Source: Ostreococcus lucimarinus
Lineage: Eukaryota
Direction: 5' to 3' (one strand)
Length of the DNA: 64,000 nucleotides
NCBI GenBank assembly: GCA_000092065.1
Contig: CP000582.1
Positions 1,869 through 54,600 of this stretch are shown here, piece after piece. How positions within the stretch are numbered: the stretch's first letter is position 1; the number at the start of each line of letters is the position of its first letter. The notes under the pieces are model-generated. The model searched no databases and had not been told where the DNA came from. It saw nothing but the letters and a program-made list of their open reading frames with translations. Both the position numbers and the translations under genes were made by a program.

Positions 1869-2098
1869 TTTAGCGTTTCATGAAACCATAGTTCAATGAG
1901 CAAACGCCCTCGCCACTTTCGCACTACGTGCTGTGTAGTAGCGACTGACCGGAATTTCCGGACTGGACCCCTCAAAATATCAAACTCACCTCGACAACGT
2001 CATTACGTGAAGACGTCATTACGTGCCGCTACACCGCAGCTTCATTAGTTGAGAAAACACGTTAAGAAAACACTTTAGCGCCTATCCATTGAAGACAG

Positions 2099-3210: not shown

Positions 3211-3242
3211 GTTGATCATTTTAGAGTTTGAAGCTTTCATGT

Positions 3243-5231
3243 TCAGAGCCTCTCCAGTGGTTCAATCCCTAACAATGAGAAAGTCAATTTCATTGTATAT
3301 AGTGTCCGCTCACACAGATAAATTCTACTTTCTTCATTGTCTCCACCTATTACTTTGCATTCCGCATAGAAGTTGTTGAAGGTACTACAAAGCGTGTAAA
3401 GGTACTCGCAGAGCTTTGAAGGTGCTAAGTCTTGTAGCGTTGTCAGTAGAGCATCTTGAAACTTGATAATCTGAATAGCTAAGAGTCGCTCTTCCTCGTG
3501 ACTGATACTGAATTGATCAGGTCGTCCTGCAAAGGAAGATTTTTGTAATATTGTCGCAACCCGCGCGTGCGAGTACTGCAGATACATAGCCGTGTTTCCC
3601 TTTAGGTCTAGCATTCTATCAAACGAAAATGTGTAGTTCGTCAGCCGATTGTTCTGAAGGTCAGCATATTTCACTGAACTCACACCTAGCACTTTGGATG
3701 CGTGCTTTATTTCGTCAGTAGTGAGATTTGTACCCTTTTCTTCTAAGAACTTAAAACATCGTTCTTCGGCCTCATCTAGTAAAGACTTCAATTTGACTGT
3801 TTCACCAGATCTCGTACGTAGACGTTTTCCATCTTCACCTAAAACAACACCAAAACCAACGTGCTCTAATGCCACTTGTGCGTCCCCCCACCCTGCTTCG
3901 TTCGCAGTTTTAAAAATTGCTTTGAAATGTTTGTGCTGCCCTTGATCTGTTACGTAAATGATTTTATCCGCCTTTTCGCTCATGATTCTGTGACGTACTG
4001 CCGCCAAATCTGTCGATGCATAGTTGAAACCCCCATCACTTTTGCGACAAATTACTGGGGTATCATCAGACTCAGTGAAAATGCAAAGCGCACCAGCATC
4101 TTCCACGATTAACCTTTTAGATTGAAGCTCATCAAGTACCGATGGGATCATATCGTTGTAGAAACTTTCTCCCTTCTCGACTATTCGGATTTTTAATCGG
4201 TCGTAGATCGTCTGAAACTCAGCTCGGCTTGCACTGCAGATTTGCCGCCACATATGTGCTGTTTCTGGATCATACGACTGAAGCTTGACGACCATATCTT
4301 TTGATTTTGCCTTGAAATCATCGTCAACATCGAATTTCTGCTTAGCTTGCTTGTAGCAAGCTTGCAGATCACTTACACTCGAGTCCGGTGATATGCCATT
4401 TTCCTTCATGAACTGAATCAACATTCCAAACTGAGTGCCCCAATCACCAACATGGTTCACGCGAGTGGTGGTATAACCACAGAATTCGAAAACATTGCAG
4501 AGAGTATCACCAATTATAGTGCTACGAAGATGACCGACATGCATTTCCTTTGCAATGTTTGGGGAAGAAAAGTCTACCAAAACGTGCCTTTTGATAGTAG
4601 GACCCAACTCTGCACTTTTGGTTTCTCTAAAAAGTTCCGAACGTATGTAGTTATCGGACAGGCGAAAGTTTATGAACCCAGGTCCGGCAATGGTGATGGA
4701 ATCAAACATTTCCCTTTCAGATATTCCGGCTACGATTTCATCAGCGACGTCACGCGGACTGCGAAAGCTAGTTTCCCCAGCTTTTGCAAGTGCAGAAAAA
4801 ATTTGCATAGCACTACTACTCTGGAAGTCGCCCAGCGAAGTATTAGCGCATTCCGCAACATCTATCGGTTTGTCGTAGTCAGGAAACCGCTCACGCACGG
4901 ACGACTCAACCATCCCTCTAAGCGTGCCGAGGATAGTATGTTCCGTCACACTAGCTTCTGCTGAACACTGTCGCCGCACGGCGCCTGGTCTTCGACGCAC
5001 GCCGCCAGTTCTTCGGCGCACAGCAGTCTGCCTTCCGGATTCAACGTGAATTCTCATATAATTCGATTGAAACGCTACATTTCGTAGCAAGCGGGCTGCG
5101 TAAACCATCGCAGACGACAACCCGGTGTTTCGGCCACGGCGCGGGGTTGACGCCAGGGCTATCCTCCTTGTTTTCTTCGATATATTCTTTTGCGTTTTTG
5201 GTTCAAATTTACAGCTGATGCTCGTAATCAA
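3243..5231 (-). CDS. RARS: Arginyl-tRNA synthetase (class I); single exon as an ORF. The true start codon is uncertain; the N-terminal about 60 aa look like a presequence or extension.
   Basis: A 662-aa ORF with the class I HIGH motif (MHVGHLRSTIIGD), NHVGDWGTQFGMLI, and a DALR anticodon-binding region (...TAMYLQYSHARVATILQKS). An internal MVYAARLLRNVAF.. looks like a mitochondrial-type presequence, so the gene may be dual-targeted or use an alternative start. Confidence 0.9.
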   Translation of the reverse strand: MITSISCKFEPKTQKNISKKTRRIALASTPRRGRNTGLSSAMVYAARLLRNVAFQSNYMRIHVESGRQTAVRRRTGGVRRRPGAVRRQCSAEASVTEHTILGTLRGMVESSVRERFPDYDKPIDVAECANTSLGDFQSSSAMQIFSALAKAGETSFRSPRDVADEIVAGISEREMFDSITIAGPGFINFRLSDNYIRSELFRETKSAELGPTIKRHVLVDFSSPNIAKEMHVGHLRSTIIGDTLCNVFEFCGYTTTRVNHVGDWGTQFGMLIQFMKENGISPDSSVSDLQACYKQAKQKFDVDDDFKAKSKDMVVKLQSYDPETAHMWRQICSASRAEFQTIYDRLKIRIVEKGESFYNDMIPSVLDELQSKRLIVEDAGALCIFTESDDTPVICRKSDGGFNYASTDLAAVRHRIMSEKADKIIYVTDQGQHKHFKAIFKTANEAGWGDAQVALEHVGFGVVLGEDGKRLRTRSGETVKLKSLLDEAEERCFKFLEEKGTNLTTDEIKHASKVLGVSSVKYADLQNNRLTNYTFSFDRMLDLKGNTAMYLQYSHARVATILQKSSFAGRPDQFSISHEEERLLAIQIIKFQDALLTTLQDLAPSKLCEYLYTLCSTFNNFYAECKVIGGDNEESRIYLCERTLYTMKLTFSLLGIEPLERL

Positions 5232-35066: not shown

Positions 35067-35519
35067 AAGAAAGCGGTTTGTGCTCGAGTTCGTGACATCG
35101 CGTAGTATTGTCAGGTGTCCCTAATTGAGAGCAAAACATGAGAAGATGCGGTTTTGCGTTGTTTTAACATCCGTACCGATTCGTCCACTACACCAGGAAC
35201 CATGTCGCGCCACGAGACTCCGTTTTTTTGAATTTGCCGACTTTCACTGCGACTGGCGAACGGTAGAGGGACCGCAGAGCGACGAAGGAGCGACGAAGGA
35301 GCGATCGTAGATCGTAGATTGCGTCCTCTGCAAGACCGCAAATGTCTTAAGGAATCGAGCTTGTGTAACGTGTTGCGATGTGAGTCGTCTGCGATTTTGA
35401 ACGGCGGGGTTCGTTTCGTTCCCAGCACGGAAAAATTTATATATCGCCCCTTTAGAGAGTACCTACACACATGACGAGTCATGAACCGTGGATATATACG
35501 TATTTTACACCGTTTAGTT

Positions 35520-36086
35520 CTAAAAGTTTGATTCTACAACATCTACGAGGTACTTACTAATGCTAATTTGCTCGCCTTTGCTTGCCTTGCGTTTGTGTTC
35601 ATCGACCATCTTCTCGTGCCAGCCCCTCTTCCTGCTCAACGCCGTATCACCCGCCGCGCCTCTCATAGGAATCGCAACCAGGTTCGACATACCGAGCACA
35701 CCATCGCCGTCCATTTTGCTATTCTTGGACATGTTTTGAGACATCTCTCTGTGTGTCTTCAAGTTGTGCATGAAACGTTGAAGTTTGTCGAGCGCGTCTG
35801 TGATGTGTGCGGCTTCATCAGGCTCGAACGTAAACTCCGGATCGAGTGCGAGTTGTATCATCTCGGTACACGATTGAACCCAGCGTGACTTTACACTCAC
35901 GTTGTCGAAAGCTGCTCCAAGGCTTCTCCGATGAGTTGGTAGAGAGGCTTCAACATTATCTGGAATCGCTGGAGTCACGTGTCTCCTGGAATCGCTGGAG
36001 TCACGTGTCTCCTGGAGCCCGGACGATACGTGAAGAGCATCACCGAACGGATCGTCGAAGGGATCATCGTCGCACTCGTCTTCCAT
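35520..36086 (-). CDS. Hypothetical acidic 188-aa protein encoded inside the TIR element. No recognisable domain.
   Basis: The ORF exactly fills the space between the two TIRs. Its reading frame passes through a 26-bp tandem duplication (35960..36011), which is read in two different frames (ETRDSSDS | RRHVTPAIP). The ORF is therefore either recently frameshifted or fortuitous. Confidence 0.3.
   Translation of the reverse strand: MEDECDDDPFDDPFGDALHVSSGLQETRDSSDSRRHVTPAIPDNVEASLPTHRRSLGAAFDNVSVKSRWVQSCTEMIQLALDPEFTFEPDEAAHITDALDKLQRFMHNLKTHREMSQNMSKNSKMDGDGVLGMSNLVAIPMRGAAGDTALSRKRGWHEKMVDEHKRKASKGEQISISKYLVDVVESNF
35960..36019. repeat. 26-bp direct tandem duplication (ctggaatcgctggagtcacgtgtctc x2 plus a partial third copy)
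   Basis: Two perfect copies at 35960..35985 and 35986..36011 are followed by ctggagcc. The unit length is not a multiple of three, so the duplication shifts the frame of the enclosing ORF. Confidence 0.8.
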
Positions 36087-36445
36087 CCGACCATCGCCCG
36101 CACGCGCGACGACAACTGGCGCGACAGGCGTGGAAAAGACACGAGGCGAACGTGTTTTTCACCAAGGTAGGAATACTCTATTGTAGATGGCACTAAACGG
36201 TGTAAAATACGTATATATCCACGGTTCATGACTCGTCATGTGTGTAGGTACTCTCTAAAGGGGCGATATAAATTTTTCCCCCCGAACGCGTTTTTTGAAC
36301 GCGCCGGGGTTTAGCGAAACGCGATGGCGCAACCGTCGCGTTCGCGCGCCCGCCAGTGCGCGGTGCGGCCGCGGCCGCCCGCGGGTGCGCGTGAGTAGTT
36401 CGAGGTGATTCCGACGCGTCGCGTCCGCACGTCGTCGCGCGCCGA

Positions 36446-38239
36446 ATGCCTCGCACGTGCGTGTGCACGAACCCGAACTGCGACAAAGATGTCGAGCGAT
36501 TCGCGTTCCAACTCGGCAAGCACTGGAAAGACGACGTGCTCAAATCGATTCTATCGAGTCTCAGACCCGGAGCGGATGCTGATGACGTAGAAAAATACTT
36601 TTTGCGCGCGATGACGAAGCCCGATGGTGTTCGAGTGTCCTCGCAGCACTTCTTCTGGTACCATTTAGCATGGTCTCGAGGAGACCGCCCGAAGCTGGTC
36701 TTCAAAGATGGCGCGCACGTCCGGCCGACGTACATGCTCCATTCGAATCGGCCGACGTACGCGGGCGAACGAATCGTCGATCCGGCTCGTGTAGAATGTT
36801 TATCACCGCGCGAGACGCGTCTGCGCGTGAAGGCGCCGGCACGGGCGCCCCTTTCAGAGATTTCAAATTTGAATGAGGACGACGTGCATGCGACACAAGC
36901 TGGTGTCAGAGTTGGGATTAAACGGCGACGATCTGCTCCTGCGGCAATTTGCTCGCACAATCGCGCGCAAAACATGTCTTTGAACTCGTTTGAACGGGGA
37001 AGGCCGGGGGAAGAGACGTGCCGCGTGCAAGAAGGGACTATCCACAAGTTACGCTGTGATGAGTTGAAGTTGAGCGAGGCGCTGCGGGAAGAGCGTCAGC
37101 ACGCAGACGACGCGCGCGAGGACGTTCGTTTGCTCACGGAAGAACTTGAACGTATTCAAGAAGAAATGCACGACCAGGATCGAAAATCCTCGTTCGTAAC
37201 TATGCGATACTTGCGGGCGACGAGAGCTAGTGATAAGCAAATCAAAGCGCTTACTGGGTGGCCAACTTTGAAAACATTCGATGCTTTGTGGCGTTTCGTC
37301 AACGCGGGCGACCGCAATGCGACGCAAAACTTGTCGATTGTCAAACGAAAATGGAGGGGCGATTCGACGAGCGCGACGGGTTCGCATGGAACGGTCGTTC
37401 CGCGGAAAAAGAGCTTCAAATGGGAAGATGTATTTTTGGCGTGGTGGATGAGAGCGAAGATGGACTTGACCGCGGATCAACTTGCATACTTCGTCGGAAT
37501 ACACAAATCGACGCTTACACGTGCGCTACATCAAATGACATCATTTTTAACGGTTTTTATACGTGCTTACGGTGGCGACCCGATCGATCCCGAATGGATC
37601 CAGATGACAACAGGGGAGGATTGGAAAGAAGCATACGGGCAGAAACCTTATGAGATTATCGACGTGACTGAAGTGCCCATGGAGACTCCAGATGACCCAT
37701 ATATGCAGCGTTTGTTTTACAGTCATTATAAGAAGCGCTACGTGTGCAAATTTCTTGGCGCCTGTCACTCAAATTGTCTTGCCGCTTTCTGTTCAGTTGG
37801 GTTCCCTGGATCCATTTTTGACAATGAAATTTGCTTTGCTGGAAAGGATCATCCGATGCTTAATCATGCGGTACACCGAGCCAGCATCCGCCGGAGGACG
37901 TTCACAGACGAGAACGACGAAAATGTAGTCGTTCCCGAAACAATTGCAGCTGATCGTGGCTTTTGCGAAGGGTTGAATAGACAGTTTGAACGGGATGCGT
38001 TCAGGCTTGTGCACCCTGCGTTTTCAAGAGGCAAGAATGTGGCCTTCTCCAAGGAGGACATTCTCGACACCAGGGCGCAAGCATGTCGCCGAGTGCTAAT
38101 TGAAAATGCTTTCGGTCGCGTCAAGACGATTTGGAAGCGTATGCGCGGTCCAATAGCTATCTCCAAGCTGAAATCGGTGCATCAGGAGTGGCCAATAATA
38201 TTTTTCCTAGCGCTAGATTTACAAGCTTCGCTAAGGTAG
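36446..38239 (+). CDS. PIF/Harbinger-type DDE transposase (DDE_Tnp_4) with a long Cys-rich/coiled-coil N-terminal extension. GC about 60%.
   Basis: A 597-aa ORF, real ATG at 36446. The C-terminal half has an HTH plus the Harbinger catalytic triad context: YEIIDVTEVPMETP (D1), IAADRGFCEGL (D2), VLIENAFGRVKTIWKRM (E, the VENxFGxLK motif). The N-terminus has CVCTNPNCDKD and a charged coiled coil (ELKLSEALREERQHADDAREDVRLLTEELERIQEEM). It is strongly GC-enriched relative to flanking host genes. Confidence 0.75.
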   Translation: MPRTCVCTNPNCDKDVERFAFQLGKHWKDDVLKSILSSLRPGADADDVEKYFLRAMTKPDGVRVSSQHFFWYHLAWSRGDRPKLVFKDGAHVRPTYMLHSNRPTYAGERIVDPARVECLSPRETRLRVKAPARAPLSEISNLNEDDVHATQAGVRVGIKRRRSAPAAICSHNRAQNMSLNSFERGRPGEETCRVQEGTIHKLRCDELKLSEALREERQHADDAREDVRLLTEELERIQEEMHDQDRKSSFVTMRYLRATRASDKQIKALTGWPTLKTFDALWRFVNAGDRNATQNLSIVKRKWRGDSTSATGSHGTVVPRKKSFKWEDVFLAWWMRAKMDLTADQLAYFVGIHKSTLTRALHQMTSFLTVFIRAYGGDPIDPEWIQMTTGEDWKEAYGQKPYEIIDVTEVPMETPDDPYMQRLFYSHYKKRYVCKFLGACHSNCLAAFCSVGFPGSIFDNEICFAGKDHPMLNHAVHRASIRRRTFTDENDENVVVPETIAADRGFCEGLNRQFERDAFRLVHPAFSRGKNVAFSKEDILDTRAQACRRVLIENAFGRVKTIWKRMRGPIAISKLKSVHQEWPIIFFLALDLQASLR

Positions 38240-40336
38240 ATTCCGCGTCTCGCACGCGTCTGTAACCCTGTGTAAAGTACATTTGTGATTGTTCTCTTTT
38301 TCATATACGTCGAAATACTCCCTGAGAAGTGTTGATGGCTTGTTTCGCGACCACATCGCGCTTACATCAGGTGCAACTTCAGGGAGCTCCAAATCACCGT
38401 CACCGCGAGTGTCCACAGTGCATCGTCGCTTTGCGCGCCCAGCTTCGAATCGATTAAAGTCAATGTTGCTAAGAGGATTTTTGCGATTCATCGGATCCCC
38501 TTCGCCACTCGTGCCGAACCACTCACTTTCGAGCGACGTGCATGGATCAGCTGGTCGTTGCAACTTGGCAAAATACCAGAGCGCTGCGATGACATGGATG
38601 CACCCTCCGAAGTCTCCGCCCGCTCCCGCCTTGCACGCGCACGTCCCACGCTCGACACTGACGACATGGTCATGGACATGTTCATTCGTTTCTTCGTCGA
38701 TGCACCCATACTTGCATAACAAGCATACAGCGACGGCATAACGCTCTGCTTTGAGTGATGCCGGAATACCAACTCGGAACCACACGCGGAAGTGAGTTTG
38801 CATCCACGGATGCCCCACGTGCGCAAAACGAATCGGAAGGGGCGTCCGGGCGTGTATTCGTGCGTATCCTTGTCGATACGCTTTGGATCGAACCGGGTCG
38901 CCGTAAACGGACATCCCCGCGAGCCACGTCGTGATGATGTCCTCACCCATAAGCGGTGACGTCTCGCGGAAAAGCTCAACGTCAGTGCTCCACACTTCAG
39001 CATCCATTGGTGCGTCCAGATCGGGATCTAGCTCAGGGAATTGCGTCACCGGAAGATGAAAATGATGAACCAAATATGTATGAAGACTTTTCCCTTCTGG
39101 ATCCTGGACGTCGCCGTCGACGTCGATATCTAGCTCCTCGTACCGACGCTCAAGCTCCATCCTCTGTATGACCTCTGAGATGATGACATCTTTGTCCCGA
39201 ATATCCTGACATCCGCGGCGGCGATCGTTCCTACGCACGTTCAGCCAACGTATTAAATCCGATTTGGAGTTGTCCTCGACTCTCTTTTCCGGTAAAACGG
39301 CGCCTTTGATGAGATACTTGGGGATTCGTCTCGCCCGTGTTTCACCATGTCTAAAAAGGGCAGCCACTGCAACCAATTCAACGGGTTCGTGAGTATCCGC
39401 ATCGCGCAAACCTAAAGCGAATTCTTCGTTTTCTGAGTGATTTGCGTTGAATATGGTTGCGTCATTGAGCCAGCGTCTCTCTTTCGTCCGCATATCGTAC
39501 ACGATTGCTCGCTCAAAGCCCGCCAGGCTTTCCTCAAGTTTGAGAATTTGCGTGTCCTCATCACTCGCGTCGACGACGTCCTTCTTGACGAGGTATTTCA
39601 CAAAAGAGCGGATACTGAGAGTCTCTGCACTCTGTATGCACGCTACAATGGCTTTCAGAGCCGTTTGGGGTCCAAGTCCGGGAACTTTCCCCTCCCTGTA
39701 ATCACACCCGCTCGCCGCCGCCCACAAGCGCATGGCGGCGTCGCCGTGCATGCACATGAGCTCCGCAACTGTGTTCACCTCGTTCGTGTCTACCGGCATC
39801 CTCAGGTTGTTTCTGTTAAAAACGTTGCACTTTAACGTCGAAACGCTCCAAGACACCTTGTGGACGACCTTGGCGCACCCGAGCACCACTGCATCTGTGT
39901 CATCCGTCAACACGAAATCAACGAGACCACTCGACTCCATGTACTTCAACTGGTGATCTGATTCGTTTGGCGCCACGACGTACACGAATCCACGCTTCCG
40001 CACTTCATTCAGTATCCGAGGCAAATAACATCGTTCGAATTTTTCACCTATCGTACCTGCTCGCTTCGCGTGCGTCTCCTTCTTGTGTGCAGTCCTCGCA
40101 CCGTCGAAAACAAGGACTGGGAAGACACCTGCATTCACGAGCTTCGTAGCGCGCGAAATGACCGTTTCTACAGACGAATCCAGTTTATCCTGAACAGAAC
40201 CAGTTTTTCGCATCGCCCACCCCTGGTGTATCCAGATGTTTGCGTCTACCCCCGCTTTCGCGTTGGCGAACTCGCCGCCGATGGACGTGCGGACGACCGC
40301 ATCGTCGAACGCTTTCCACCCTGCGTCGACGCCCAT
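38231..40336 (-). CDS. XPG/FEN1-family structure-specific nuclease (XPG-N, XPG-I, H3TH) fused to a C-terminal SWIM-type zinc finger. GC-rich, convergent with and overlapping the transposase 3' end by 9 bp.
   Basis: Product is MGVDAGWKAF...AGVDANIWIHQ (XPG-N), VFDGARTAHKKETHAKR, VVAPNESDHQLKYMESSGLVDFVLTDDTDAVVLG (XPG-I with acidic catalytic residues), GCDYREGKVPGLGPQTALKAIV (helix-3-turn-helix), ... CLLCKYGCIDEETNEHVHDHVVSVERGTCACKAGAGGDFGGCIHVIAALW (a CxC-x9-CxH SWIM pattern). The ATG at 40336 gives the canonical MGV start of XPG-family proteins. The track start at 40354 is a TTG. Confidence 0.7.
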   Translation of the reverse strand: MGVDAGWKAFDDAVVRTSIGGEFANAKAGVDANIWIHQGWAMRKTGSVQDKLDSSVETVISRATKLVNAGVFPVLVFDGARTAHKKETHAKRAGTIGEKFERCYLPRILNEVRKRGFVYVVAPNESDHQLKYMESSGLVDFVLTDDTDAVVLGCAKVVHKVSWSVSTLKCNVFNRNNLRMPVDTNEVNTVAELMCMHGDAAMRLWAAASGCDYREGKVPGLGPQTALKAIVACIQSAETLSIRSFVKYLVKKDVVDASDEDTQILKLEESLAGFERAIVYDMRTKERRWLNDATIFNANHSENEEFALGLRDADTHEPVELVAVAALFRHGETRARRIPKYLIKGAVLPEKRVEDNSKSDLIRWLNVRRNDRRRGCQDIRDKDVIISEVIQRMELERRYEELDIDVDGDVQDPEGKSLHTYLVHHFHLPVTQFPELDPDLDAPMDAEVWSTDVELFRETSPLMGEDIITTWLAGMSVYGDPVRSKAYRQGYARIHARTPLPIRFAHVGHPWMQTHFRVWFRVGIPASLKAERYAVAVCLLCKYGCIDEETNEHVHDHVVSVERGTCACKAGAGGDFGGCIHVIAALWYFAKLQRPADPCTSLESEWFGTSGEGDPMNRKNPLSNIDFNRFEAGRAKRRCTVDTRGDGDLELPEVAPDVSAMWSRNKPSTLLREYFDVYEKENNHKCTLHRVTDACETRNLP

Positions 40337-40672
40337 ACGCACCAGAATTTGCAAACACGGCTACAACTCGATCAGAAATACATTTTGTCACCTGTTCATG
40401 TGCCTCCGCGATGCCCGACGCGCGTGCGCGCCACGACAGCAGCGTGAAAGTGACGGGGATGCGCGACGGGCCGAGCGAGTTCAAAAAAAGGACGAAAGGG
40501 CACCGGATTCGAGGTTTTCGTCGACAGTGGGTCATGACGAGTCACAAACGTTCGACTTAAATATGTAAAATGATAGGAAAACCTTAATGCAATGGGTCAT
40601 AATAGCTGAATATATATGGTTTCTCGTCGTAATGGACAAAAGTTGCTTTCATAAAAATAAGGATGTAGTTGT

Positions 40673-40789
40673 TACTGAGAGTGGGGTTCGAACCCACGCA
40701 GTCAATGACTACCAGAAATCTCACCAGTTTTTTCGGTGAAGCTTATTCGCACTTGAGTCTGGCCCCTTAGACCACTCGGGCATCCCAGC
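40673..40789 (-). tRNA. tRNA-Leu (anticodon CAA) with a 33-nt intron in the canonical position 37/38
   Basis: Minus-strand read is GCTGGGA-TG-CCC-GAGTGGTCTAAG-GGG-G-CCAGA-CTCAAG-[tgcgaataagcttcaccgaaaaaactggtgagat]-T-TCTGG-TAGTCATTGACTGC (long type-II variable arm) -GTGGG-TTCGAAC-CCCAC-TCTCAGT-A. The acceptor stem pairs with two G-U wobbles. D-loop GAGTGGTCTAAG is typical of Leu/Ser tRNAs. The T-loop is TTCGAAC. There is no encoded CCA. Confidence 0.85.
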
Positions 40790-42646: not shown

Positions 42647-45600
42647 GTGACATATGACATCGTATTACAACGTTTTACCCCCACTTCGCAAGGACCGACC
42701 ACCCCATATCCATGTGCTATAAAAGCTAACTCAAAATGGAAGCTCGTACGTCTGAAACGCTTGGCGCTCGAGCGTTTCCGATGTCCGATGTTAACGCGCC
42801 ACAAACCGGAGAGCGTTCAGAATGGTACGCCCCGAAATGAATCACGAATGAGCAATCTAGACACACGCGCTATGTCGAACCCTTACTTTCAGGTCGGGCG
42901 ATGGGACTGCACGGACGAGCTCGAGGGGTGTCAATTCTCCGCGCCACATACGTCGGTGTCAGTTCCTAATTTCGAAGAGATTCAGACCCTTCACTACACC
43001 TGCGTGTATGAAGTGGCGATCACGTGTACACAGCGGCATGATATGCATAACGATGAGTTCGCGCATGTACTTAGTTCTGTCATCGAGCTCGCAAATCGCG
43101 TTGACCTGACACGACTTAGGCAACATCACTCCATAGATAACTTTGCCACACACGTTCTCACTTTTCGGTTCATTCTGGACCTGTTGAGGCAAACTTATCA
43201 GGAATACATCAAAGGAAGCATAGAAAATAATTCGTTTGAGCATGTCGAATTTACTTTCAACAATTGCATGGATGGTACGCACGGAATGGCAACATGCTTT
43301 AAACCGAATAAAAAGCATAGTCACCTTTGTTACATTTTGGATATTTCGCAGGCAGAAAGAAGTTGCAATGGTCGTACTGATGACACAAAATGCGTGCACG
43401 ACAAAATTACTATGAACGATCGCGTTCTTTCCGCGGCTAAGATCCCAGACAACGCAGTGAATAAACAATTCAGTGCTAGTATACTCAATGATGTGTATGG
43501 TTTCGATTCAAGTCTGTTCCATATTTCTCAGTCGGAAACCCTCTGCATGGACCCACAACAACGACTATTACTTCTTGCAGCAGCAGACTTATACCTGAGT
43601 AACACACGTGTTTGTCAACACGACGACTCCTTCTGCGTGCACGTCGGTGTATCGTGGAATGACTTTGAGGAAATTCGCAGAAAGTATAGTGCAGACTTTT
43701 TCTCCACTTATGATTCGACGGGAACATCAATAAGTGTCGCATCGGGTAGAATTGCGTATTATTTTGATTTCAAAGGGTGTGCTGTGACGATTGATACGGC
43801 TTGTTCATCATCTTTGGTTGCGTTGCATCAATCCATGTACGCAGCTGGCTCGCTCCGTGAATCAAGTGCACTTGTATGTGGCATCAACTTGATTTTGACA
43901 ACCACGATGACACATCGATTTCAGCTTGCTGGAATGATGTCTTCAGAGCATCGATGTATGACATTTGATGCACGCGCGGATGGCTACGTCCGGAGTGAGG
44001 CATGCAACATCGTACTCTTACACTTCAATGGCTTCACAAAAACTCATAGGAATGTACTGCGGCATGACGTTCATATGTCATGCGTCGTCAATCAAGATGG
44101 AACATCAACTGGACTTACGGCACCTAATGGAACAGCTCAGCGGAACCTGATGAATGAGTTACTATCGGACGTTTATAACCCTTCAAAACACGTTGGTGCT
44201 AAAATACATGCCCACGGCACAGGTACGCCTCTTGGGGATCCGATAGAGGTGTTTGCTATCAATTCTGCCCTCTCGTTTTCGTCACTGTGCAGGCTGTATG
44301 TGTCAGAAAAGTCGATGCGAGGGCACACAGAACCTGCTTCAGGTCTATGCAGCACCATACTTGCTTTCGTATCAGGTGCACAGTGCAAGCTACATGGTCA
44401 ACCACATTTACAGCAGTTAAACAATCATATACTAACATCGGTTGATGAAAGTATTTTTCAGCGTTCACTGCATTCCAGTTTTCCCTTAACTTCTATGGCG
44501 AGTGTCACCACAGTAAGCTCCTTCGCGTTCCAAGGGACGAACGCAATGGCTTCACTGACATATATCGACAAATGCAGTATTAGAGTGATTCGCAACACGT
44601 CAGGTCTGAGATCTTTGGTCAAGTTGGAGACTGAATCCCCTGTAAGACTCCCGTACACATTTTCTTGCCTTAGCATCGTCAATGGGAAAATGATACAGCT
44701 AACTTCAATGATTCACGACAAAACATTGAAGCGACTTTTGGATCATCGTGTAGCTGATATGCATCTTATGCCAGCCACAGGCCATCTTGAACTTGAAAGA
44801 GAGCTCACGAAGTGCGCTCTCGTAAGGAATGAACCATATCTTCTGACAAAGATCGCATTTATGCTGCCTCTCAAGCTTGATGAAAGCAATCAACTTATCA
44901 CAGAGATGAACACACATGGTCGCTTACGCGTTGGATGTGGCTCTGGCATATCCAATTACTGGTGTAGTACTGCACGACTTCAAATACCAGTAGGACGTGC
45001 CTGGTGCACGGACCGTACTTTTTATCTGACTAGTAAACTCGTTTCTCGGCGTTTCAAAGGTGCGACCGCAACAATAGCAGGGACGACGCCAATTCTCGAT
45101 TCACAAAATGTCGTGAATCCGTGTATCCAGGATGCGAGTCTACAATGCTCTGCATACGTCTTGAACACGTCAGCTTTCGCATCTGATACAACCTACATGG
45201 ACTGCGTATCGTTACTTAAGCTACCAACAACAATTCAAGACGTCATAGTTGTTAATCAGACAGGAAAAATACTTGTTAGATCGACGCATGTTGACATGTT
45301 GCAGAAGACGCAGCATGTGACTGAAAGTAATAACTCTGTCACAAGTAACTCTTCGAGTAACAATAAAACGCAGACATGGATACATCGTTTACTGTGTAAA
45401 GTATCAACCGTACGGATGAAAGCTGGCTTACGCACTCGCACATGCTTGGAACTCGCGAGATTGTTGTACCACGCGAGACAACAAAGAGTGCTGATATCAA
45501 ATATGCAAAACTTGCGTGAAGTAGGCAGTTTACATGCTCCAGAACTGATGCCCATCATGCGCGAAATGGGTCGTAAGTCAATGCAAGATATTAATTCGGC

Positions 45601-48600
45601 TAGTGCCTCTCTTTGCGCGGTTGCGCTGCTGCAGGCTTGCGGCGCTCGTGCGCGCGTTTCCGGCGCCCACGTGCGTGCAAACGACATCGTCCACGAGGAC
45701 GCTTCGGCCGCGCCCGCAGTCTGTGGATCGTGCGTGCGCGCCACCGTGCAATCTTCCGCGCAGGAACGCAGCGAGCCATTGGTGCTGAGTGTCGCGAGCG
45801 CCCCGCACACCGCGCCAGCCCGAGCGTTGCGATCGATCGCCGCCGGGGCGTCGATCGCCGGGGCGCTGTGCGTTGAGCGGCTGCTTCCGGCGTTCGGTCG
45901 CCGGACGCCCGCCGCGTCGCGCGACGGCGCGGCGACGACCACGGCGTCGCCGGCACCGAAAGTCTCGAGCGTGTTCGTGACTGGCGGTCTGGGCGCGTTG
46001 GGTCAGACTTCGGCGGCGTGGTACGCGCATCGAGGCGTTCGCCACGCCTACTTGACTGGTCGCCGCGGGCGCGGAGAGTCCCTTCTGCTGCGATGGTCGT
46101 CGCGCGGCGGTACCGACGTGAGCGCATTGCACGTGCTTCGCGTCGACGCGTGTGCGACCGACGAGGCGTCGTACGGCGGTGCGCGCGCGCACGCGCGCGT
46201 GCGCGCACACGGCGTGCTGCACGCGGGCGGCGTGCTACGCGACTCTTTGACTGCTCGCCAATCCGCGTCGGCCCATCGATACGTGTGGTCGTCCAAAGTA
46301 GTGTCCGCGCACGCATTGCTCCGCCAGTGCGTCGGCGTCGAGCGCGGCGCGCGTCACATCGCGCTGTTCTCGTCGGTGGCGGCGCTGCTGGGGAGTCCAG
46401 GGCAATGCAACTACAGCGCGGCCAACGCCGCGCTGGACGCGCGAGCCGCACACGAGTGGTGCCGCGGGTACGCGGTGCAATCCGTGCAGTGGGGCGCGTG
46501 GGACGGCGCGGGAATGGCGCTGACAAACGCGTCTGTACTCAGGAACGCGCGCACGACAGGCATCGGCGTGCTCGATCCGCAAGCCGGGCTCGGGGCCGTA
46601 CACGTCGCGCTTCAGGGCGCATCAGTGACGGGTCGCTGGCGGGCAATCCAAGGCGTCCTGGCCGTCGTCCCGTTCCAGTGGTCCGTGCTCGCGCGCGCGC
46701 AGCGCTCGCGCGCGCTGATTGCGGAGTACCGCGCGGAGTCGGCGCGGTCGAGCGCTCCAGTCGCCGTCCATCCGGGCGCCGAGGAAGACGCGGCGCGCGA
46801 TGTGTCAGATGAGAGCGTGCGGCAGATCGTGGCCTCCGCCGTGACGCGCGCGCTCGGCAGAGACGTGTCGGTGGACGCGTCGCTCATGGAAGAGGGCCTA
46901 GACTCGCTCGCGGCGGTCGAGCTCGGAGGGGCGTTACAAAAGGAAACGGGCGTGAACATGCCGGCCACGCTGGCATTTGACTACCCGACGATCACCGCGA
47001 TATCTGGGTACCTGAAGGGTGCGATGCTGGCGCGATCGCGTGCGCGCCAATCGAGCGGCGCGGCGTCCAGCGCCGCTCGCACGCGCGCCGCGAGCGGCGC
47101 GGTCGCGCATTCGCGCGACTCGATGCCAGGTATTGCATCCAACGCGCGCGAAATCTTGGGTCTTGCGCCCGTTGTTATGGCCATCAGACGGAGCGTGCGA
47201 CGACTCGACGCGGATGATCGAGAGCCAAAGCCTGCTCGACATGGCGGCTCGGCGTTGTTTTCATCGTTCGTGAGGTGCGTCATGGCAGAGCGAGCCTCTG
47301 AAGATCGCTTCGACACGCCATCGTTGGGCAGGCAGCCGAGCGCGACAGCGCGCGTGGTCTCCTTGACGAAAGCCAGAGATTTCACTACACAAGCTCTCGA
47401 CAGCATGCCGAAATGCAACGAGATTGAGCTGAGCGTCGTCAGCGCTGTGTCGAGTAAGGCATCAGGCGCGCACGATGCCGTGCGTGTGAACAACATGCGA
47501 CATGCGTGCGGCGAAGTGTGTGATCCACAAAGCTCAAAATCGCACGAGTTCGTCGCTCGGCGTCTTGTGCAGTTTGGGTACTTCATCGAGCGCAGCTTGT
47601 TTGACGGGGAGCAGTTCTCCGTAACGGCGCACGAGGCGCGGTTGATGGACCCGCAGCAGCGCGTGCTCCTGGAGAACGCGCTCGCCGCGACGAGTGCGAC
47701 GCCGCACAGCGCGCCGAAGCCAGCCACAGCCGTGTCCGTCGGCGCTTGGACGTCTCAGTACGCAGACATGTGCCGCGTGTACGAGCCAACGCCGGGGCCG
47801 TACTCTGGCGTTGCTTCCGCCTTGAGCGTGCTGTGCGGTCGCGTATCGTACACGTTTGGTATGCGTGGCCCGTCCGTGTGTGTCGACACCGCGTGCTCCT
47901 CCTCGCTCGTGGCCGCGCATGTTGCGAGCTCTCACTTGCGCGATGGATCGTGCGAGGACGCCCTCGTCGCCGGCGTGAGCGTGAACGTCGGCATCGGCAC
48001 CTTCCTCGTGGCCACCGCCGCGAGCATGCTATCGTTCGATGGTCGGTGCAAAACCTTGGATGCCAGCGCCGACGGTTACGCCAAGGGCGAGTGCTGCGTG
48101 GTCCTGCGCGTGTCGGTGGACGGGGCGAGCGCTGGAGCGCCCAAAGCGCCCGATCTTCCAAACGCCGAGTCTCCCTCTCTCGCTCTTCTCGAACAGACCG
48201 GTGTGAACCAGGATGGACGGTCGAGCTCGCTCACCGCACCAAACGGGCCGTCGCAGCAGGCACTCGTGGCCGATGCGCTTCTCCGCTCGGGGCTGCACGG
48301 CGACGCGCTCGGCAGGCTGGAGATGCACGGCACGGGTACTTCGCTGGGAGATCCGATAGAGGTCGGCGCCGCGCTTGAGGTTCTCGCGCCGCCGACGCGC
48401 GCGGACCGGGCGCCGTCCAGGGGCCCCGCGCTCACGCTTGAGGGCGTGAAGCCACGCGCTGGCCACTGCGAACCAGGGGCTGGCGCGGTTGGGTTGCTGT
48501 TTGCGATGGCAAACTTGACGGAGCGAGCCGTCGCGTCCCTCGTCCACCTGCGCCAGCTCAACCCTCACGTCGAGGCCGCGACGCGCCGAAACGCACCGTC

Positions 48601-51600
48601 GCCGCATGCGCGCGCGCCGGTGCTCGCGCGACAAGGCATGCCGCGACCGGATGACGGCGCGTCTGAGGCTGGAGCAGCGGACGCTGCTCGAGCGCGCGTG
48701 CGGCGATCCGGCGTGAGCGGCTTCGCGTTCCAGGGCACAAACGCGCACGCAATCATGGCCCGGGGACCCGGACAGGCGACTGCGCCCGGGTACACGGGAA
48801 GCACGCACACGGCGGCGCGTGCGTGGGAGCGTCAGCGCCACTGGTGCGCGCCAGAACGGCACTGCCTCATCGAGTCCGTGCGCGCTCTGCATCCTCGCGA
48901 GGGAGACTCGAGCGCGTTGGCGCGGTCGTGCGTGCGCCTGTGTCGGTCCGCGTCGCTCGCTGGCATGCTTGATCACGCCGTCGGGCTCCGGACGCTGCTA
49001 CCAGGCACAGCGCACGTCGAGATATGTCGAGCCATGGCGGGCGCGCTGGCAGACCAGCCGCTCGCCGACATCTCGCTGTCGCACGTATCTTTTGCAGCGC
49101 CCCTCGAGCTTCGAGCGCCGACGACCGACGTGCTGTGCGACGTCACGCCGCAAGGCGTGGCCCGCGTGGGCGTGCGCGTGTCGTCGTCCTCTGCCGCCGC
49201 GCCGTTCCTCGCGGGCGCGCTCAGCCGCAGAAGCGCCTCAAGAATTACTGCGTCTCCGGCGCACCTCTCGCGAGGACCGGCGATGCCCGCGCTGGACGTG
49301 CAGCCTTGTGTTCACGGCGCGAGCTGGCTGCGCTCGTCGCAGCGACGAGGCCCGGGCGCGGAGCACCGCGTGTACGGCGACATACGCGCGCGTCAGATGT
49401 CCACGCTGTCGGCTGCGGCGTATCACTCGCCGCCCGCAGTGCTCGATGCCGCGCTGCACGCGCTCAGCGCGTGCGCGCCGCCGCCGGGTAGCGATGCGAC
49501 AGAAGAGAGCCCGCACGTCCCGGCCACGATCGGCGGCGTCCGCACGCGAGGCGGGCACTCGGACATATACCGCGCCCGGTTCGCGCTCGCGACGGCTCCG
49601 CCTGAGCGCGGGGAGCGGAACGCGTCCACGCGCAGATCTCGTCACCACCTGTGGGACTGGTCGAGTCTTTCGGCGGCGCATCGAGGGTGCGTGGTGCACG
49701 CGCTGGAGTCTCGACGACTCGGTGGCGCCGCGGTCGTGCGCTCGCGAGCACAACAGCGCTCGAGGGCACCGCCGCCGCGTCGCGCGGCCGCGCCGCGTGT
49801 GCTTTATGGAGTCGGGCAACAGCGCGCGTGCGGCGCGGCGGATGGCCAGGGCGCGCGTCGACGCTCAACCCTCAACTCGCAGTGCTTTGTGGACGACGCG
49901 TCGCACCGCCGCGAGCTGATGGAGACCCACGCGTCACCATCGATCGCGCAAGGCAGCACGCGAAGCAGCACGCGCGCCTCTCTTTGCGCGGTTGCGCTGC
50001 TGCAGGCTTGCGGCGCTCGTGCGCGCGTTTCCGGCGCCCACGTGCGTGCAAACGACATCGTCCACGAGGACGCTTCGGCCGCGCCCGCAGTCTGTGGATC
50101 GTGCGTGCGCGCCACCGTGCAGTCTTCCGCGCAGGAACGCAGCGAGCCATTGGTGCTGAGTGTCGCGAGCGCCCCGCACACCGCGCCAGCCCGAGCGTTG
50201 CGATCGATCGCCGCCGGGGCGTCGATCGCCGGGGCGCTGTGCGTTGAGCGTCTGCTTCCGACGTTCGGTCGCCGGACGCCCGCCGCGTCGCGCGACGGCG
50301 CGGCGACGACCACGGCGTCGCCGGCACCGAAAGTCTCGAGCGTGTTCGTGACTGGCGGTCTGGGCGCGTTGGGTCAGACTTCGGCGGCGTGGTACGCGCA
50401 TCGAGGCGTTCGCCACGCCTACTTGACTGGTCGCCGCGGGCGCGGAGAGTCCCTTCTGCTGCGATGGTCGTCGCGCGGCGGTACCGACGTGAGCGCATTG
50501 CACGTGCTTCGCGTCGACGCGTGTGCGACCGACGAGGCGTCGTACGGCGGTGCGCGCGCGCACGCGCGCGTGCGCGCACACGGCGTGCTGCACGCGGGCG
50601 GCGTGCTACGCGACTCTTTGACTGCTCGCCAATCCGCGTCGGCCCATCGATACGTGTGGTCGTCCAAAGTAGTGTCCGCGCACGCATTGCTCCGCCAGTG
50701 CGTCGGCGTCGAGCGCGGCGCGCGTCACATCGCGCTGTTCTCGTCGGTGGCGGCGCTGCTGGGGAGTCCAGGGCAATGCAACTACAGCGCGGCCAACGCC
50801 GCGCTGGACGCGCGAGCCGCACACGAGTGGTGCCGCGGGTACGCGGTGCAATCCGTGCAGTGGGGCGCGTGGGACGGCGCGGGAATGGCGCTGACAAACG
50901 CGTCTGTACTCAGGAACGCGCGCACGACAGGCATCGGCGTGCTCGATCCGCAAGCCGGGCTCGGGGCCGTACACGTCGCGCTTCAGGGCGCATCAGTGAC
51001 GGGTCGCTGGCGGGCAATCCAAGGCGTCCTGGCCGTCGTCCCGTTCCAGTGGTCCGTGCTCGCGCGCGCGCAGCGCTCGCGCGCGCTGATTGCGGAGTAC
51101 CGCGCGGAGTCGGCGCGGTCGAGCGCTCCAGTCGCCGTCCATCCGGGCGCCGAGGAAGACGCGGCGCGCGATGTGTCAGATGAGAGCGTGCGGCAGATCG
51201 TGGCCTCCGCCGTGACGCGCGCGCTCGGCAGAGACGTGTCGGTGGACGCGTCGCTCATGGAAGAGGGCCTAGACTCGCTCGCGGCGGTCGAGCTCGGAGG
51301 GGCGTTACAAAAGGAAACGGGCGTGAACATGCCGGCCACGCTGGCATTTGACTACCCGACGATCACCGCGATATCTGGGTACCTGAAGGGTGCGATGCTG
51401 GCGCGATCGCGTGCGCGCCAATCGAGCGGCGCGGCGTCCAGCGCCGCTCGCACGCGCGCCGCGAGCGGCGCGGTCGCGCATTCGCGACGTACAACCATTA
51501 CTCAGCTCCCTCGTCTACGTCTATCATACGTTCCGCATGAAGTCAGCCGACGAACGACTCTTGGCATTAGCGGTCAATATTCTCACGAGCTTAGACACTT

Positions 51601-54600
51601 TAGCTCTGCGGGACCTTCGACCAGTAACTTTGAGGGAGTCCTCTTTGTTCGCATTCATAACTCCACCAAGCCCTTACCCGTGCATCCATATTTCATTGGC
51701 AACTTTTTGCGTTGTGACGAACTCGAGTTCGGCTTGTTTGGCGCACCGCACAGCGAATGGACTACTCTGGACGCGCGGCAGATTCTCTTGATTGAGAGTG
51801 TACACACTATCCAGCTGAACAACAGTTCAGACGTTTCATTGCGCACTCTAGAGACGACGGCTGTTCTTGTTGGAGCACAAGCGGTAGATTCAACTGACGA
51901 GCATAGCGTTGAGATACAGTACAACGCCTACTCTGGCGTTGCTTCCGCCTTGAGCGTGCTGTGCGGTCGCGTATCGTACACGTTTGGTATGCGTGGCCCG
52001 TCCGTGTGTGTCGACACCGCGTGCTCCTCCTCGCTCGTGGCCGCGCATGTTGCGAGCTCTCACTTGCGCGATGGATCGTGCGAGGACGCCCTCGTCGCCG
52101 GCGTGAGCGTGAACGTCGGCATCGGCACCTTCCTCGTGGCCACCGCCGCGAGCATGCTATCGTTCGATGGTCGGTGCAAAACCTTGGATGCCAGCGCCGA
52201 CGGTTACGCCAAGGGCGAGTGCTGCGTGGTCCTGCGCGTGTCGGTGGACGGGGCGAGCGCTGGAGCGCCCAAAGCGCCCGATCTTCCAAACGCCGAGTCT
52301 CCCTCTCTCGCTCTTCTCGAACAGACCGGTGTGAACCAGGATGGACGGTCGAGCTCGCTCACCGCACCAAACGGGCCGTCGCAGCAGGCACTCGTGGCCG
52401 ATGCGCTTCTCCGCTCGGGGCTGCACGGCGACGCGCTCGGCAGGCTGGAGATGCACGGCACGGGTACTTCGCTGGGAGATCCGATAGAGGTCGGCGCCGC
52501 GCTTGAGGTTCTCGCGCCGCCGACGCGCGCGGACCGGGCGCCGTCCAGGGGCCCCGCGCTCACGCTTGAGGGCGTGAAGCCACGCGCTGGCCACTGCGAA
52601 CCAGGGGCTGGCGCGGTTGGGTTGCTGTTTGCGATGGCAAACTTGACGGAGCGAGCCGTCGCGTCCCTCGTCCACCTGCGCCAGCTCAACCCTCACGTCG
52701 AGGCCGCGACGCGCCGAAACGCACCGTCGCCGCATGCGCGCGCGCCGGTGCTCGCGCGACAAGGCATGCCGCGACCGGATGACGGCGCGTCTGAGGCTGG
52801 AGCAGCGGACGCTGCTCGAGCGCGCGTGCGGCGATCCGGCGTGAGCGGCTTCGCGTTCCAGGGCACAAACGCGCACGCAATCATGGCCCGGGGACCCGGA
52901 CAGGCGACTGCGCCCGGGTACACGGGAAGCACGCACACGGCGGCGCGTGCGTGGGAGCGTCAGCGCCACTGGTGCGCGCCAGAACGGCACTGCCTCATCG
53001 AGTCCGTGCGCGCTCTTCATCCTCGCGAGGGAGACTCGAGCGCGTTGGCGCGGTCGTGCGTGCGCCTGTGTCGGTCCGCGTCGCTCGCTGGCATGCTTGA
53101 TCACGCCATCGGGCTCCGGACGCTACTACCAGGCACAGCGCACGTCGAGATATGTCGAGCCATGGCGGGCGCGCTGGCAGACCAGCCGCTCGCCGACATC
53201 TCGCTGTCGCACGTATCTTTTGCAGCGCCCCTCGAGCTTCGAGCGCCGACGACCGACGTGCTGTGCGACGTCACGCCGCAAGGCGTGGCCCGCGTGGGCG
53301 TGCGCGTGTCGTCGTCCTCTGCCGCCGCGCCGTTCCTCGCGGGCGCGCTCAGCCGCAGAAGCGCCTCAAGAATTACTGCGTCTCCGGCGCACCTCTCGCG
53401 AGGACCGGCGATGCCCGCGCTGGACGTGCAGCCTTGTGTTCACGGCGCCATCAGACGGAGCGTGCGACGACTCGACGCGGATGATCGAGAGCCAAAGCCT
53501 GCTCGACATGGCGGCTCGGCGTTGTTTTCATCGTTCGTGAGGTGCGTCATGGCAGAGCGAGCCTCTGAAGATCGCTTCGACACGCCATCGTTGGGCAGGC
53601 AGCCGAGCGCGACAGCGCGCGTGGTCTCCTTGACGAAAGCCAGAGATTTCACTACACAAGCTCTCGACAGCATGCCGAAATGCAACGAGATTGAGCTGAG
53701 CGTCGTCAGCGCTGTGTCGAGTAAGGCATCAGGCGCGCACGATGCTGTGCGTGTGAACAACATGCGACATGCGTGCGGCGAAGTGTGTGATCCACAAAGC
53801 TCAAAATCGCACGAGTTCGTCGCTCGGCATCTTGTGCAGTTTGGGTACTTCATCGAGCGCAGCTTGTTTGACGGGGAGCAGTTCTCCGTAACGGCGCACG
53901 AGGCGCGGTTGATGGACCCGCAGCAGCGCGTGCTCCTGGAGAACGCGCTCGCCGCGACGAGCGCGACGCCGCACAGCGCGCCGAAGCCAGCCACAGCCGT
54001 GTCCGTCGGCGCTTGGACGTCTCAGTACGCAGACATGTGCCGCGTGTACGAGCCAACGCCGGGGCCGTACTCTGGCGTTGCTTCCGCCTTGAGCGTGCTG
54101 TGCGGTCGCGTATCGTACACGTTTGGTATGCGTGGCCCGTCCGTGTGTGTCGACACCGCGTGCTCCTCCTCGCTCGTGGCCGCGCATGTTGCGAGCTCTC
54201 ACTTGCGCGATGGATCGTGCGAGGACGCCCTCGTCGCCGGCGTGAGCGTGAACGTCGGCATCGGCACCTTCCTCGTGGCCACCGCCGCGAGCATGCTATC
54301 GTTCGATGGTCGGTGCAAAACCTTGGATGCCAGCGCCGACGGTTACGCCAAGGGCGAGTGCTGCGTGGTCCTGCGCGTGTCGGTGGACGGGGCGAGCGCT
54401 GGAGCGCCCAAAGCGCCCGATCTTCCAAACGCCGAGTCTCCCTCTCTCGCTCTTCTCGAACAGACCGGTGTGAACCAGGATGGACGGTCGAGCTCGCTCA
54501 CCGCACCAAACGGGCCGTCGCAGCAGGCACTCGTGGCCGATGCGCTTCTCCGCTCGGGGCTGCACGGCGACGCGCTCGGCAGGCTGGAGATGCACGGCAC

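Follow-up and report, generated by a model that had tools for sequence, protein, structure and literature searches.

DNA transposons of the ISL2EU group encode a transposase with DDE, helix-turn-helix (HTH) and THAP domains together with a second open reading frame (ORF2) that carries a YqaJ exonuclease domain, and they insert with a 2-bp AT target-site duplication (TSD) at A/AT/T (PMC4482050, PMC4122938, PMC9179366). This nuclease-bearing second ORF is the rule in ISL2EU (PMC4482050), which has been described as an animal group (PMC9179366). In AcademX transposons, one large protein unites an Academ-type transposase with an XPG nuclease and with a finger of the Cys8 type, and the TSD measures 3-4 bp (PMC7165386). 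The present analysis deals with a stretch of 64,000 nucleotides of contig CP000582.1 of the green alga Ostreococcus lucimarinus (the window, meaning this whole 64-kb stretch), in which a gene for a DDE_Tnp_4 transposase and a convergent gene for an XPG-family nuclease form an island beside a tRNA gene. The island is very probably a copy of a two-gene, cut-and-paste DNA transposon bounded by terminal inverted repeats (TIRs) and belonging to the PHIS (PIF/Harbinger-ISL2EU-Spy) superfamily, with an organisation closest to that of ISL2EU. The most fitting description would be that of an ISL2EU-like element with an exchanged nuclease: an EXO1-type enzyme, placed N-terminal of a shared domain, stands in place of the C-terminal YqaJ.

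The initial annotation of the window had placed the island at 36290-40560, with two long convergent ORFs overlapping by 9 bp. The ORFs and their overlap, at 38231-38239, were seen as described, while the limits had to be moved: blastn homology to relatives is confined to 36280/36282-40598 (93% in L007, 88% in L118 and L088, 71% in L008; sequences outside the window are given here by L numbers), and the actual unit is 36280-40598. In L007, the full-length element measures 4411 bp (612-5022) and has a 17-bp TIR, GACCCATTGCAYTAAGG (also written GACCCATTSCAYTAAGG), inverted at 612-628 and 5006-5022 and enclosing both genes; the same arrangement is present in L008. The flanks of L007 have no similarity to the window and, from our own reading of the translations, are presumably a coatomer gamma gene and a BOP1/Erb1 gene. 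JGI metagenome contigs were scanned with the TIR pattern, and matches were kept if they resembled the element ends over a longer stretch; this yielded 58 genuine ends with 47 distinct flanks. They come from full-length copies (L021, L118, L088, L131), from internally deleted derivatives of about 1.6 kb that have kept both TIRs (L018, L023, L092) and from a miniature inverted-repeat transposable element of 211 bp (L030). A single 110-kb contig carries two separate insertions (L057, L077). The 17-bp TIRs were found at both ends in L007, L008, L018, L023, L030 and L092. The termini and further copies that the initial annotation had proposed to look for were thus recovered, with both genes, at different genomic sites in relatives. 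Both ORFs belong to one mobile element, and these copies show a family that is mobile now, or was recently, in marine Ostreococcus-like populations. Within the 64-kb window, each ORF and the TIR occur only once, and in the viral contigs neither a genuine TIR nor any relative of the two proteins was seen. The features of the locus are as follows.

36280-40598, plus strand: transposon body in this genome, 4319 bp, delimited by blastn homology; about the first 95 bp (left TIR) are gone
36446-38239, plus strand: transposase gene, 597 aa (XP_001416176.1, OSTLU_119558; Pfam DDE_Tnp_4)
37655-38185, plus strand: DDE_Tnp_4 catalytic domain, residues ~404-580 (Pfam 4.5e-18, residues 405-580)
38231-38239, no strand: 9-bp overlap of the stop-proximal gene ends, kept in all close relatives
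38231-40336, minus strand: accessory nuclease gene, 701 aa from ATG (XP_001416426.1; Pfam XPG_N, XPG_I)
39347-40336, minus strand: EXO1-like XPG/FEN1-family nuclease domain, residues ~1-330 (phmmer, Foldseek)
38234-39184, minus strand: C-terminal conserved domain, residues ~385-701, kept in relatives at 20-28% identity
38594-38641, minus strand: SWIM-like zinc-finger motif CxCx10CxH (C566, C568, C579, H581), then PCTSxxxxW
40525-40581, minus strand: conserved subterminal right-end sequence including GTGACTCGTCATGACCC, conserved at the right ends of many loci
40582-40598, minus strand: right TIR GACCCATTGCATTAAGG, the sole TIR copy in the window
36192-36277, no strand: one arm of an 86-nt inverted repeat unrelated to the element, adjoining its truncated left end (partner at 35433-35518)
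40673-40789, minus strand: tRNA-Leu(CAA) gene with intron (Rfam 42.4 bits), context outside the element

The two genes are conserved as a pair. Close homologues, drawn from a collection of 5.8 billion proteins, are few and patchy in distribution, and all of them represent the same gene pair at 62-99% identity, with the transposase always 597 aa long, the full-length nucleases 700-707 aa and the 9-bp overlap always present. Even at 62-68% identity the lengths are identical, and dN/dS (the ratio of nonsynonymous to synonymous substitution) amounts to 0.19-0.31 for the transposase and 0.13-0.20 for the nuclease; both genes evolve by purifying selection. Constant co-occurrence of the ORFs, which the initial annotation had proposed to check, was seen in all close relatives and in 4/4 distant relatives examined. 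Between the window and L007 (36446-40336 versus 870-4778), synonymous divergence was 0.25 for the transposase and 0.10 for the nuclease, an inequality that hints at recombination between element lineages and hence at mosaic elements.

The transposase had been called a Harbinger transposase at the outset, and this is correct as far as the DDE_Tnp_4 domain is concerned, although the element is not a classical Harbinger, having neither a Myb/SANT ORF nor a 3-bp TSD. The catalytic triad D406, D503, E553 is invariant in five relatives and in register with the transposase of an ISL2EU element on L012, to which the algal protein aligns by BLASTP over 338 residues (3e-14). A DDE_Tnp_4/IS5-like enzyme with an intact D-D-E is what defines PHIS transposases, and the relatives are, like PHIS elements, TIR-bounded and inserted in an AT-rich target, the window copy keeping the right TIR only. 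Ahead of the catalytic domain lies a putatively DNA-binding N-terminal part of about 400 aa with the stretch KRRRSAP, a coiled coil at ~200-250 and an HTH at 341-361, for which all Pfam matches are sub-threshold. The extreme N-terminus bears a conserved THAP-like motif, C7x4C12...S65xxH68, with Ser as its third Cys, and no Pfam THAP match was obtained there even at E 10. No sequence relative of the transposase was found in the PDB.

The second gene encodes a protein annotated in the reference as 'Exodeoxyribonuclease I' (XP_001416426.1). Its ORF remains open beyond the annotated ATG at 40336 up to an in-frame TTG at 40354, which would give 707 aa. Both Pfam domains score above their cut-offs (XPG_N, 6e-12; XPG_I, 4e-15). 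In a phmmer search of the PDB, the nuclease domain matched human EXO1 at 8.7e-12 with the acidic motifs in line, and EXO1 was also the best fold match of the structural model (predicted local distance difference test, pLDDT, 78) in Foldseek, with an E of 3.5e-16 and a TM of 0.74. The acidic residues D32, D78, E125, D127, D146, D148 and D212 stand in the motifs VD(32)A, FD(78)G, E125-S-D127, D146-T-D148 and CD(212)Y, which match the corresponding EXO1 motifs. With XPG_N, XPG_I and the conserved acidic metal-binding residues, the protein is a member of the XPG/Rad2-FEN1-EXO1 family. It resembles human EXO1 and XPG-FEN1 in these respects, yet differs from human EXO1 in its shortened helical arch, in being without the EXO1 C-terminal region, in the attached SWIM-like domain and in being encoded by a transposon. 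The reference annotation calls for correction, as 'Exodeoxyribonuclease I' is a transposon gene.

The SWIM finger assigned to this protein at the outset is reasonably supported as a probable, SWIM-like one. Pfam SWIM reaches 13.3 bits at the finger, below the cut-off of 19.6, and the SWIM-like domain found no match in the PDB with Foldseek. In the alignment of relatives, C566, C568 and C579 are invariant, H581 is kept in at least 90% of the sequences, and PCTSxxxxW is conserved downstream. An exhaustive search of 1.84 billion representative proteins returned full-length relatives at 20-28% identity that also have the C-terminal ~300 residues. Four of these XPG plus SWIM-like proteins (P0077, P0207, P0090, P0128) were followed into their genomic context, and each has a convergent DDE_Tnp_4 gene just downstream (4/4); the transposase of one of these distant relatives has a long coiled-coil N-terminus as well. 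The C-terminal domain is probably an adaptor or DNA-binding module.

The link to ISL2EU comes from this same domain. A profile of the C-terminal domain matches P0209, a protein of 562 aa (1.2e-5; hhalign probability 97.9%, E 4e-13, 196 columns), the N-terminal part of which aligns with the SWIM-like domain including the finger and the downstream motif, while its C-terminal part is a YqaJ exonuclease. The gene of P0209 is convergent to a THAP+HTH_Tnp_4+DDE_Tnp_4 transposase gene, and inverted repeats of ~270 bp, 99% complementary to each other, lie on either side of the two genes. This element, at L012 7360-11516 on a 528-kb low-GC contig (ENA ERZ25068803), is itself a complete canonical ISL2EU with a possible upstream SAP-domain exon, and it offers a helpful standard for comparison. 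The finger had been read initially as pointing to MULE transposases, but the domain is homologous instead to the N-terminal domain of the ISL2EU YqaJ protein. Since the common domain is joined to XPG here and to YqaJ, a nuclease of lambda-exonuclease type, in animal ISL2EU, the nuclease module has been exchanged for a non-homologous one on the opposite side.

The algal element and ISL2EU agree in several respects: their two genes converge and are enclosed by TIRs; the transposase is of the DDE_Tnp_4 type and has an HTH (putative in the alga) as well as a zinc-type motif near its N-terminus; the other protein combines a 5'-3' nuclease with a homologous SWIM-like domain; and the target is short, AT-rich and palindromic, with a duplication that in the alga is probably of 2 bp. 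They differ in the nuclease, which is XPG/EXO1-type and N-terminal here but YqaJ (PD-(D/E)XK) and C-terminal in ISL2EU, in the THAP domain, which escapes Pfam here and has its third Cys replaced, in the ~400-aa coiled-coil-bearing N-terminal part of the transposase, in the 9-bp gene overlap and in the host, a green alga. With PIF/Harbinger sensu stricto the element shares a DDE_Tnp_4 transposase, two ORFs, an AT-rich target and short TIRs, but the Myb/SANT partner is missing: Pfam scans of both long ORFs gave no Myb/SANT match, and the sole second long ORF with a family match is the one with XPG_N/XPG_I. No report of an XPG-bearing Harbinger/ISL2EU element, nor of ISL2EU in Ostreococcus, was found in the literature searched. 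The combination of genes, which according to the initial annotation would be new, is so only as regards nuclease type and host group, whereas a nuclease in a Harbinger-like transposon was already known from ISL2EU, and XPG in a transposon from AcademX (PMC7165386).

The 47 flanks define the target site closely. Next to GACCC, position -1 is A in 47/47, -2 is T in 45/47 and -3 is A in 40/47, and farther out -4 is A in 35/47 and -5 is T in 31/47. The two flanks of one copy mirror each other, as in TAATA/GACCC...GGGTC/TATTA, where the slash marks the element boundary. A 3-bp TWA TSD of the Harbinger type, which the initial annotation had proposed to look for, is contradicted by these flanks, which are inverted-symmetric and form a direct 3-bp repeat in 0/6 complete copies. 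A 2-bp palindromic TSD fits, either as TA, with termini G...C (6/6 complete copies), or as AT, with termini A...T (4/6). Models with the TIR extended outward were tried on the six complete copies and rejected. The readings part only over the empty site that they predict, which is TAATTA under an AT TSD or none, and TAATATTA under TA. One partial (half) empty site was recovered in L070: its tRNA-side flank agrees with the window as far as the TIR boundary but not beyond, and this slightly favours the AT or no-TSD reading. The search for an empty site succeeded in part, with this one partial site and no complete occupied/empty pair recovered; L021, considered as an empty site for L077, turned out to share just a common 70-bp palindromic mini-repeat.

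Element ends are often found back to back with a TA-rich spacer of 4-5 bp, for example GGGTC TATAA GACCC; this is so at L009 4366-4517, and likewise at L029, L076, L092, L106, L119 and L127. What looks like a fold-back in L009 is not an assembly palindrome, since the further right end there differs in sequence from the first. Existing ends thus seem to receive new insertions beside them time and again.

The tRNA gene adjoining the island was confirmed by Rfam. Its long variable arm and anticodon CAA identify it as tRNA-Leu, and its intron of ~34 nt is the reason why ARAGORN in default mode misses it; the orthologue in L131 was likewise found by Rfam and missed by ARAGORN. The distance from the right TIR to the tRNA gene is 74 bp. 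In L131, which is 87% identical, the element lies beside the same tRNA-Leu, the window being 17 bp shorter next to the TIR. Across ~40 insertion loci, a tRNA lies within ~200 bp at two only, the window/L131 locus and L028; the tRNA-targeted integration suggested earlier is therefore unsupported, and the target is an AT-rich palindrome.

As for the state of the window copy, both genes are intact and their catalytic motifs complete, while the left terminus has been replaced by another repeat. The left truncation recurs in L003 and L021, environmental contigs with 99% identity to the window. Because the left terminus is lost, the copy is probably immobile by itself, although it could serve as a source of proteins in trans; L034 and L127, non-autonomous relatives located elsewhere, have ends 91-98% identical to those of the window copy. 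An inverted repeat of 17 nt at 36224-36240 / 40533-40549 had been considered as the TIR and was discarded, as its left member belongs to the unrelated 86-nt arm.

This state of affairs gives some room to the idea that the O. lucimarinus pair is a domesticated, immobile relic serving the host, for instance by helping the low-GC outlier region to recombine or rearrange. It would account for the left TIR being absent from the window and from two 99%-identical contigs, for two intact ORFs with a transposase 100% identical in five samples, for protein clusters holding 144 and 114 member sequences, for the position beside the same tRNA in the 87%-identical lineage and for the purifying selection on both genes. 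Selection of this kind is, however, also seen between the lineages of active transposons, sister copies with 88-93% identity have both TIRs complete and lie in different surroundings, and the non-autonomous L034 and L127 with their closely similar ends fit recent activity in trans. No result indicates a host function, and domestication is considered unlikely. Far less probable still is that the nuclease is an ordinary host repair gene, an algal EXO1, which merely sits beside a transposase gene. The annotation and the similarity of the nuclease domain to EXO1 would speak for it; but the nuclease gene lies within the TIRs and moves with the transposase to unrelated sites, the 9-bp overlap is kept in close relatives, all four distant relatives are paired with DDE_Tnp_4, the C-terminal domain recurs in an ISL2EU ORF2, and the homologues are very few and patchy. 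Since both genes are TIR-bounded at unrelated sites and always co-occur, the host-gene alternative that had accompanied the first description of the nuclease is rejected.

Two further readings concern the kind of transposon. Under the first, the nuclease would be passenger cargo taken up by a classical PIF/Harbinger element without relation to ISL2EU, in agreement with the Harbinger-type DDE_Tnp_4 domain and with the undetected THAP. This is at odds with the missing Myb/SANT ORF, with the lack of a 3-bp direct TSD in every complete copy and with the ~200-residue domain common to the accessory protein and to the YqaJ ORF2 of a canonical ISL2EU; moreover, the pairing is kept down to 20-28% identity, and so it is an ancient, selected partnership and not cargo. 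This reading is accordingly held to be very improbable. AcademX, the one group of DNA transposons in which such an enzyme was already known, also encodes an XPG nuclease and a cysteine-rich zinc finger (PMC7165386), but there the nuclease is fused to a transposase of an unrelated superfamily, whereas the algal element has a DDE_Tnp_4 transposase, a separate convergent nuclease gene and a finger of the CxCxnCxH type. The family of the transposase excludes AcademX, leaving it a practically negligible probability.

The preferred reading, that of an ISL2EU-like PHIS transposon, has several points weighing against it. The label 'ISL2EU-like' rests on architecture, TSD length and one profile match. 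The THAP domain is unseen by Pfam and the THAP-like motif of the transposase has Ser for its third Cys. The flanks are compatible with a TSD of TA, with one of AT (ISL2EU type) and with none (Spy type). An old, immobilised and possibly co-opted copy also fits the lost left TIR and the shared tRNA-adjacent place in L131. The role proposed below for the nuclease is inferred from domain content and from the YqaJ/XPG exchange, and, as to novelty, the family may already be catalogued in Repbase or Dfam.

In bacterial Tn7, the DDE enzyme TnsB works with a separate nuclease of restriction-enzyme fold, TnsA. In the ISL2EU-like element the transposase would bind the element ends and make the 3'-OH cuts, the SWIM-like domain would tether the nuclease to the transposase-DNA complex, and the nuclease would process the 5' (non-transferred) strands, either by TnsA-like cleavage or by resection of the broken ends; in the latter variant, the donor site would be repaired by homology from a homologous copy. 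The analogy with TnsA/TnsB is mechanistic only: both systems have a DDE enzyme and a separate nuclease that could handle 5' strands, but Tn7 is bacterial, TnsA has the fold of restriction enzymes, and a sequence relationship to the present element does not exist. Since two unrelated 5' nucleases are carried on the same conserved domain, this domain would dock the nuclease, and 5'-strand processing would be the selected activity, which suggests that ISL2EU-type transposition may need a 5' nuclease. That these elements and the YqaJ-type ISL2EU use a two-enzyme transposase, with a DDE enzyme cutting 3' strands and a SWIM-tethered nuclease cutting or resecting 5' strands as a eukaryotic counterpart of TnsA/TnsB, is advanced as a tentative and still rather doubtful possibility. 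If true, the swap of unrelated nuclease folds on one adaptor would be natural evidence for an obligatory 5'-nuclease activity, and AcademX would have reached the same solution independently.

Transposons of the Harbinger-like kind are widespread. With the algal element, the nuclease-bearing ORF2 of ISL2EU type would come in two natural versions that lend themselves to experimental comparison, and the same adaptor with a different 5' nuclease argues that the transposon needs the nuclease activity and not a particular protein. The element would also place the ISL2EU branch in green picoalgae, where it was previously unreported in the literature searched. For Ostreococcus, a minimal eukaryote open to genetic work, there is now a defined family of TIR transposons, some autonomous and some not, which bears on the rearrangement of the hypervariable low-GC outlier chromosomes of this genus.

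Concerning the host DNA, the contrast in composition reported initially is genuine, the island being richer in GC than its ~45% flanks, but its figure of about 60% was overstated. GC amounts to 53.5% at 36290-40560 against 45.4% in the flanks, a difference of ~8 points; by ORF it is 51.8% and 53.3%, and values of 0.59-0.62 are attained only at both ends of the island (300-bp windows). GC at third codon positions is 0.56-0.58 in both element ORFs versus 0.41-0.43 in the neighbouring kinase and cyclin genes, the kinase being annotated as 'probable STN7' of Ostreococcus lucimarinus CCE9901; it was identified, as were the transposase and the nuclease, by exact-sequence look-up, and all three lie on a contig of 895,087 bp. 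In the Mamiellales except Bathycoccus, Ostreococcus included, mean GC exceeds 59%, and outlier chromosomes have sub-regions of lower GC (PMC3491373). With such a genome mean, the 45% background is an atypical part of the genome, and the GC of the element lies between this background and the genome mean. To judge by its size, the contig is probably chromosome 2, the big outlier chromosome, with the window in a low-GC stretch of it.

Several observations were made on the surroundings of the element. To its left, an 845-bp unit (35433-36277) lies between the 86-nt inverted repeats, which are 97% complementary, and holds a 188-aa ORF (35520-36086, minus strand) without a Pfam match. The interior of this unit is in the opposite orientation in L003 and L021, which are independent and otherwise 99% identical to the window, as the result of either a polymorphic inversion or faulty assembly. 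The 86-nt arms recur at L021 238-469 and L057 6934-7399, and therefore constitute a separate repeat family. The sequence CATGACGAGTCA is common to the 86-nt arm (35470-35486) and to the subterminal right end of the transposon (40533-40549), and it could be a common protein-binding site or be shared by chance. On the other side, L021 (1-7159), at 99% identity, has to the right of the right TIR a DNA that differs from the tRNA and 'probable STN7' kinase of the window, and the rearrangement breakpoint between the two falls exactly at the element end (window 40599 onwards). Farther to the right, a single uninterrupted ORF of 4658 aa (42647-56623) is polyketide-synthase-like by our own reading of its translation. 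Its core (~45.5-56 kb), with 68% GC versus 45% in the flanks and long near-identical internal duplications, is a much stronger GC island than that of the transposon.

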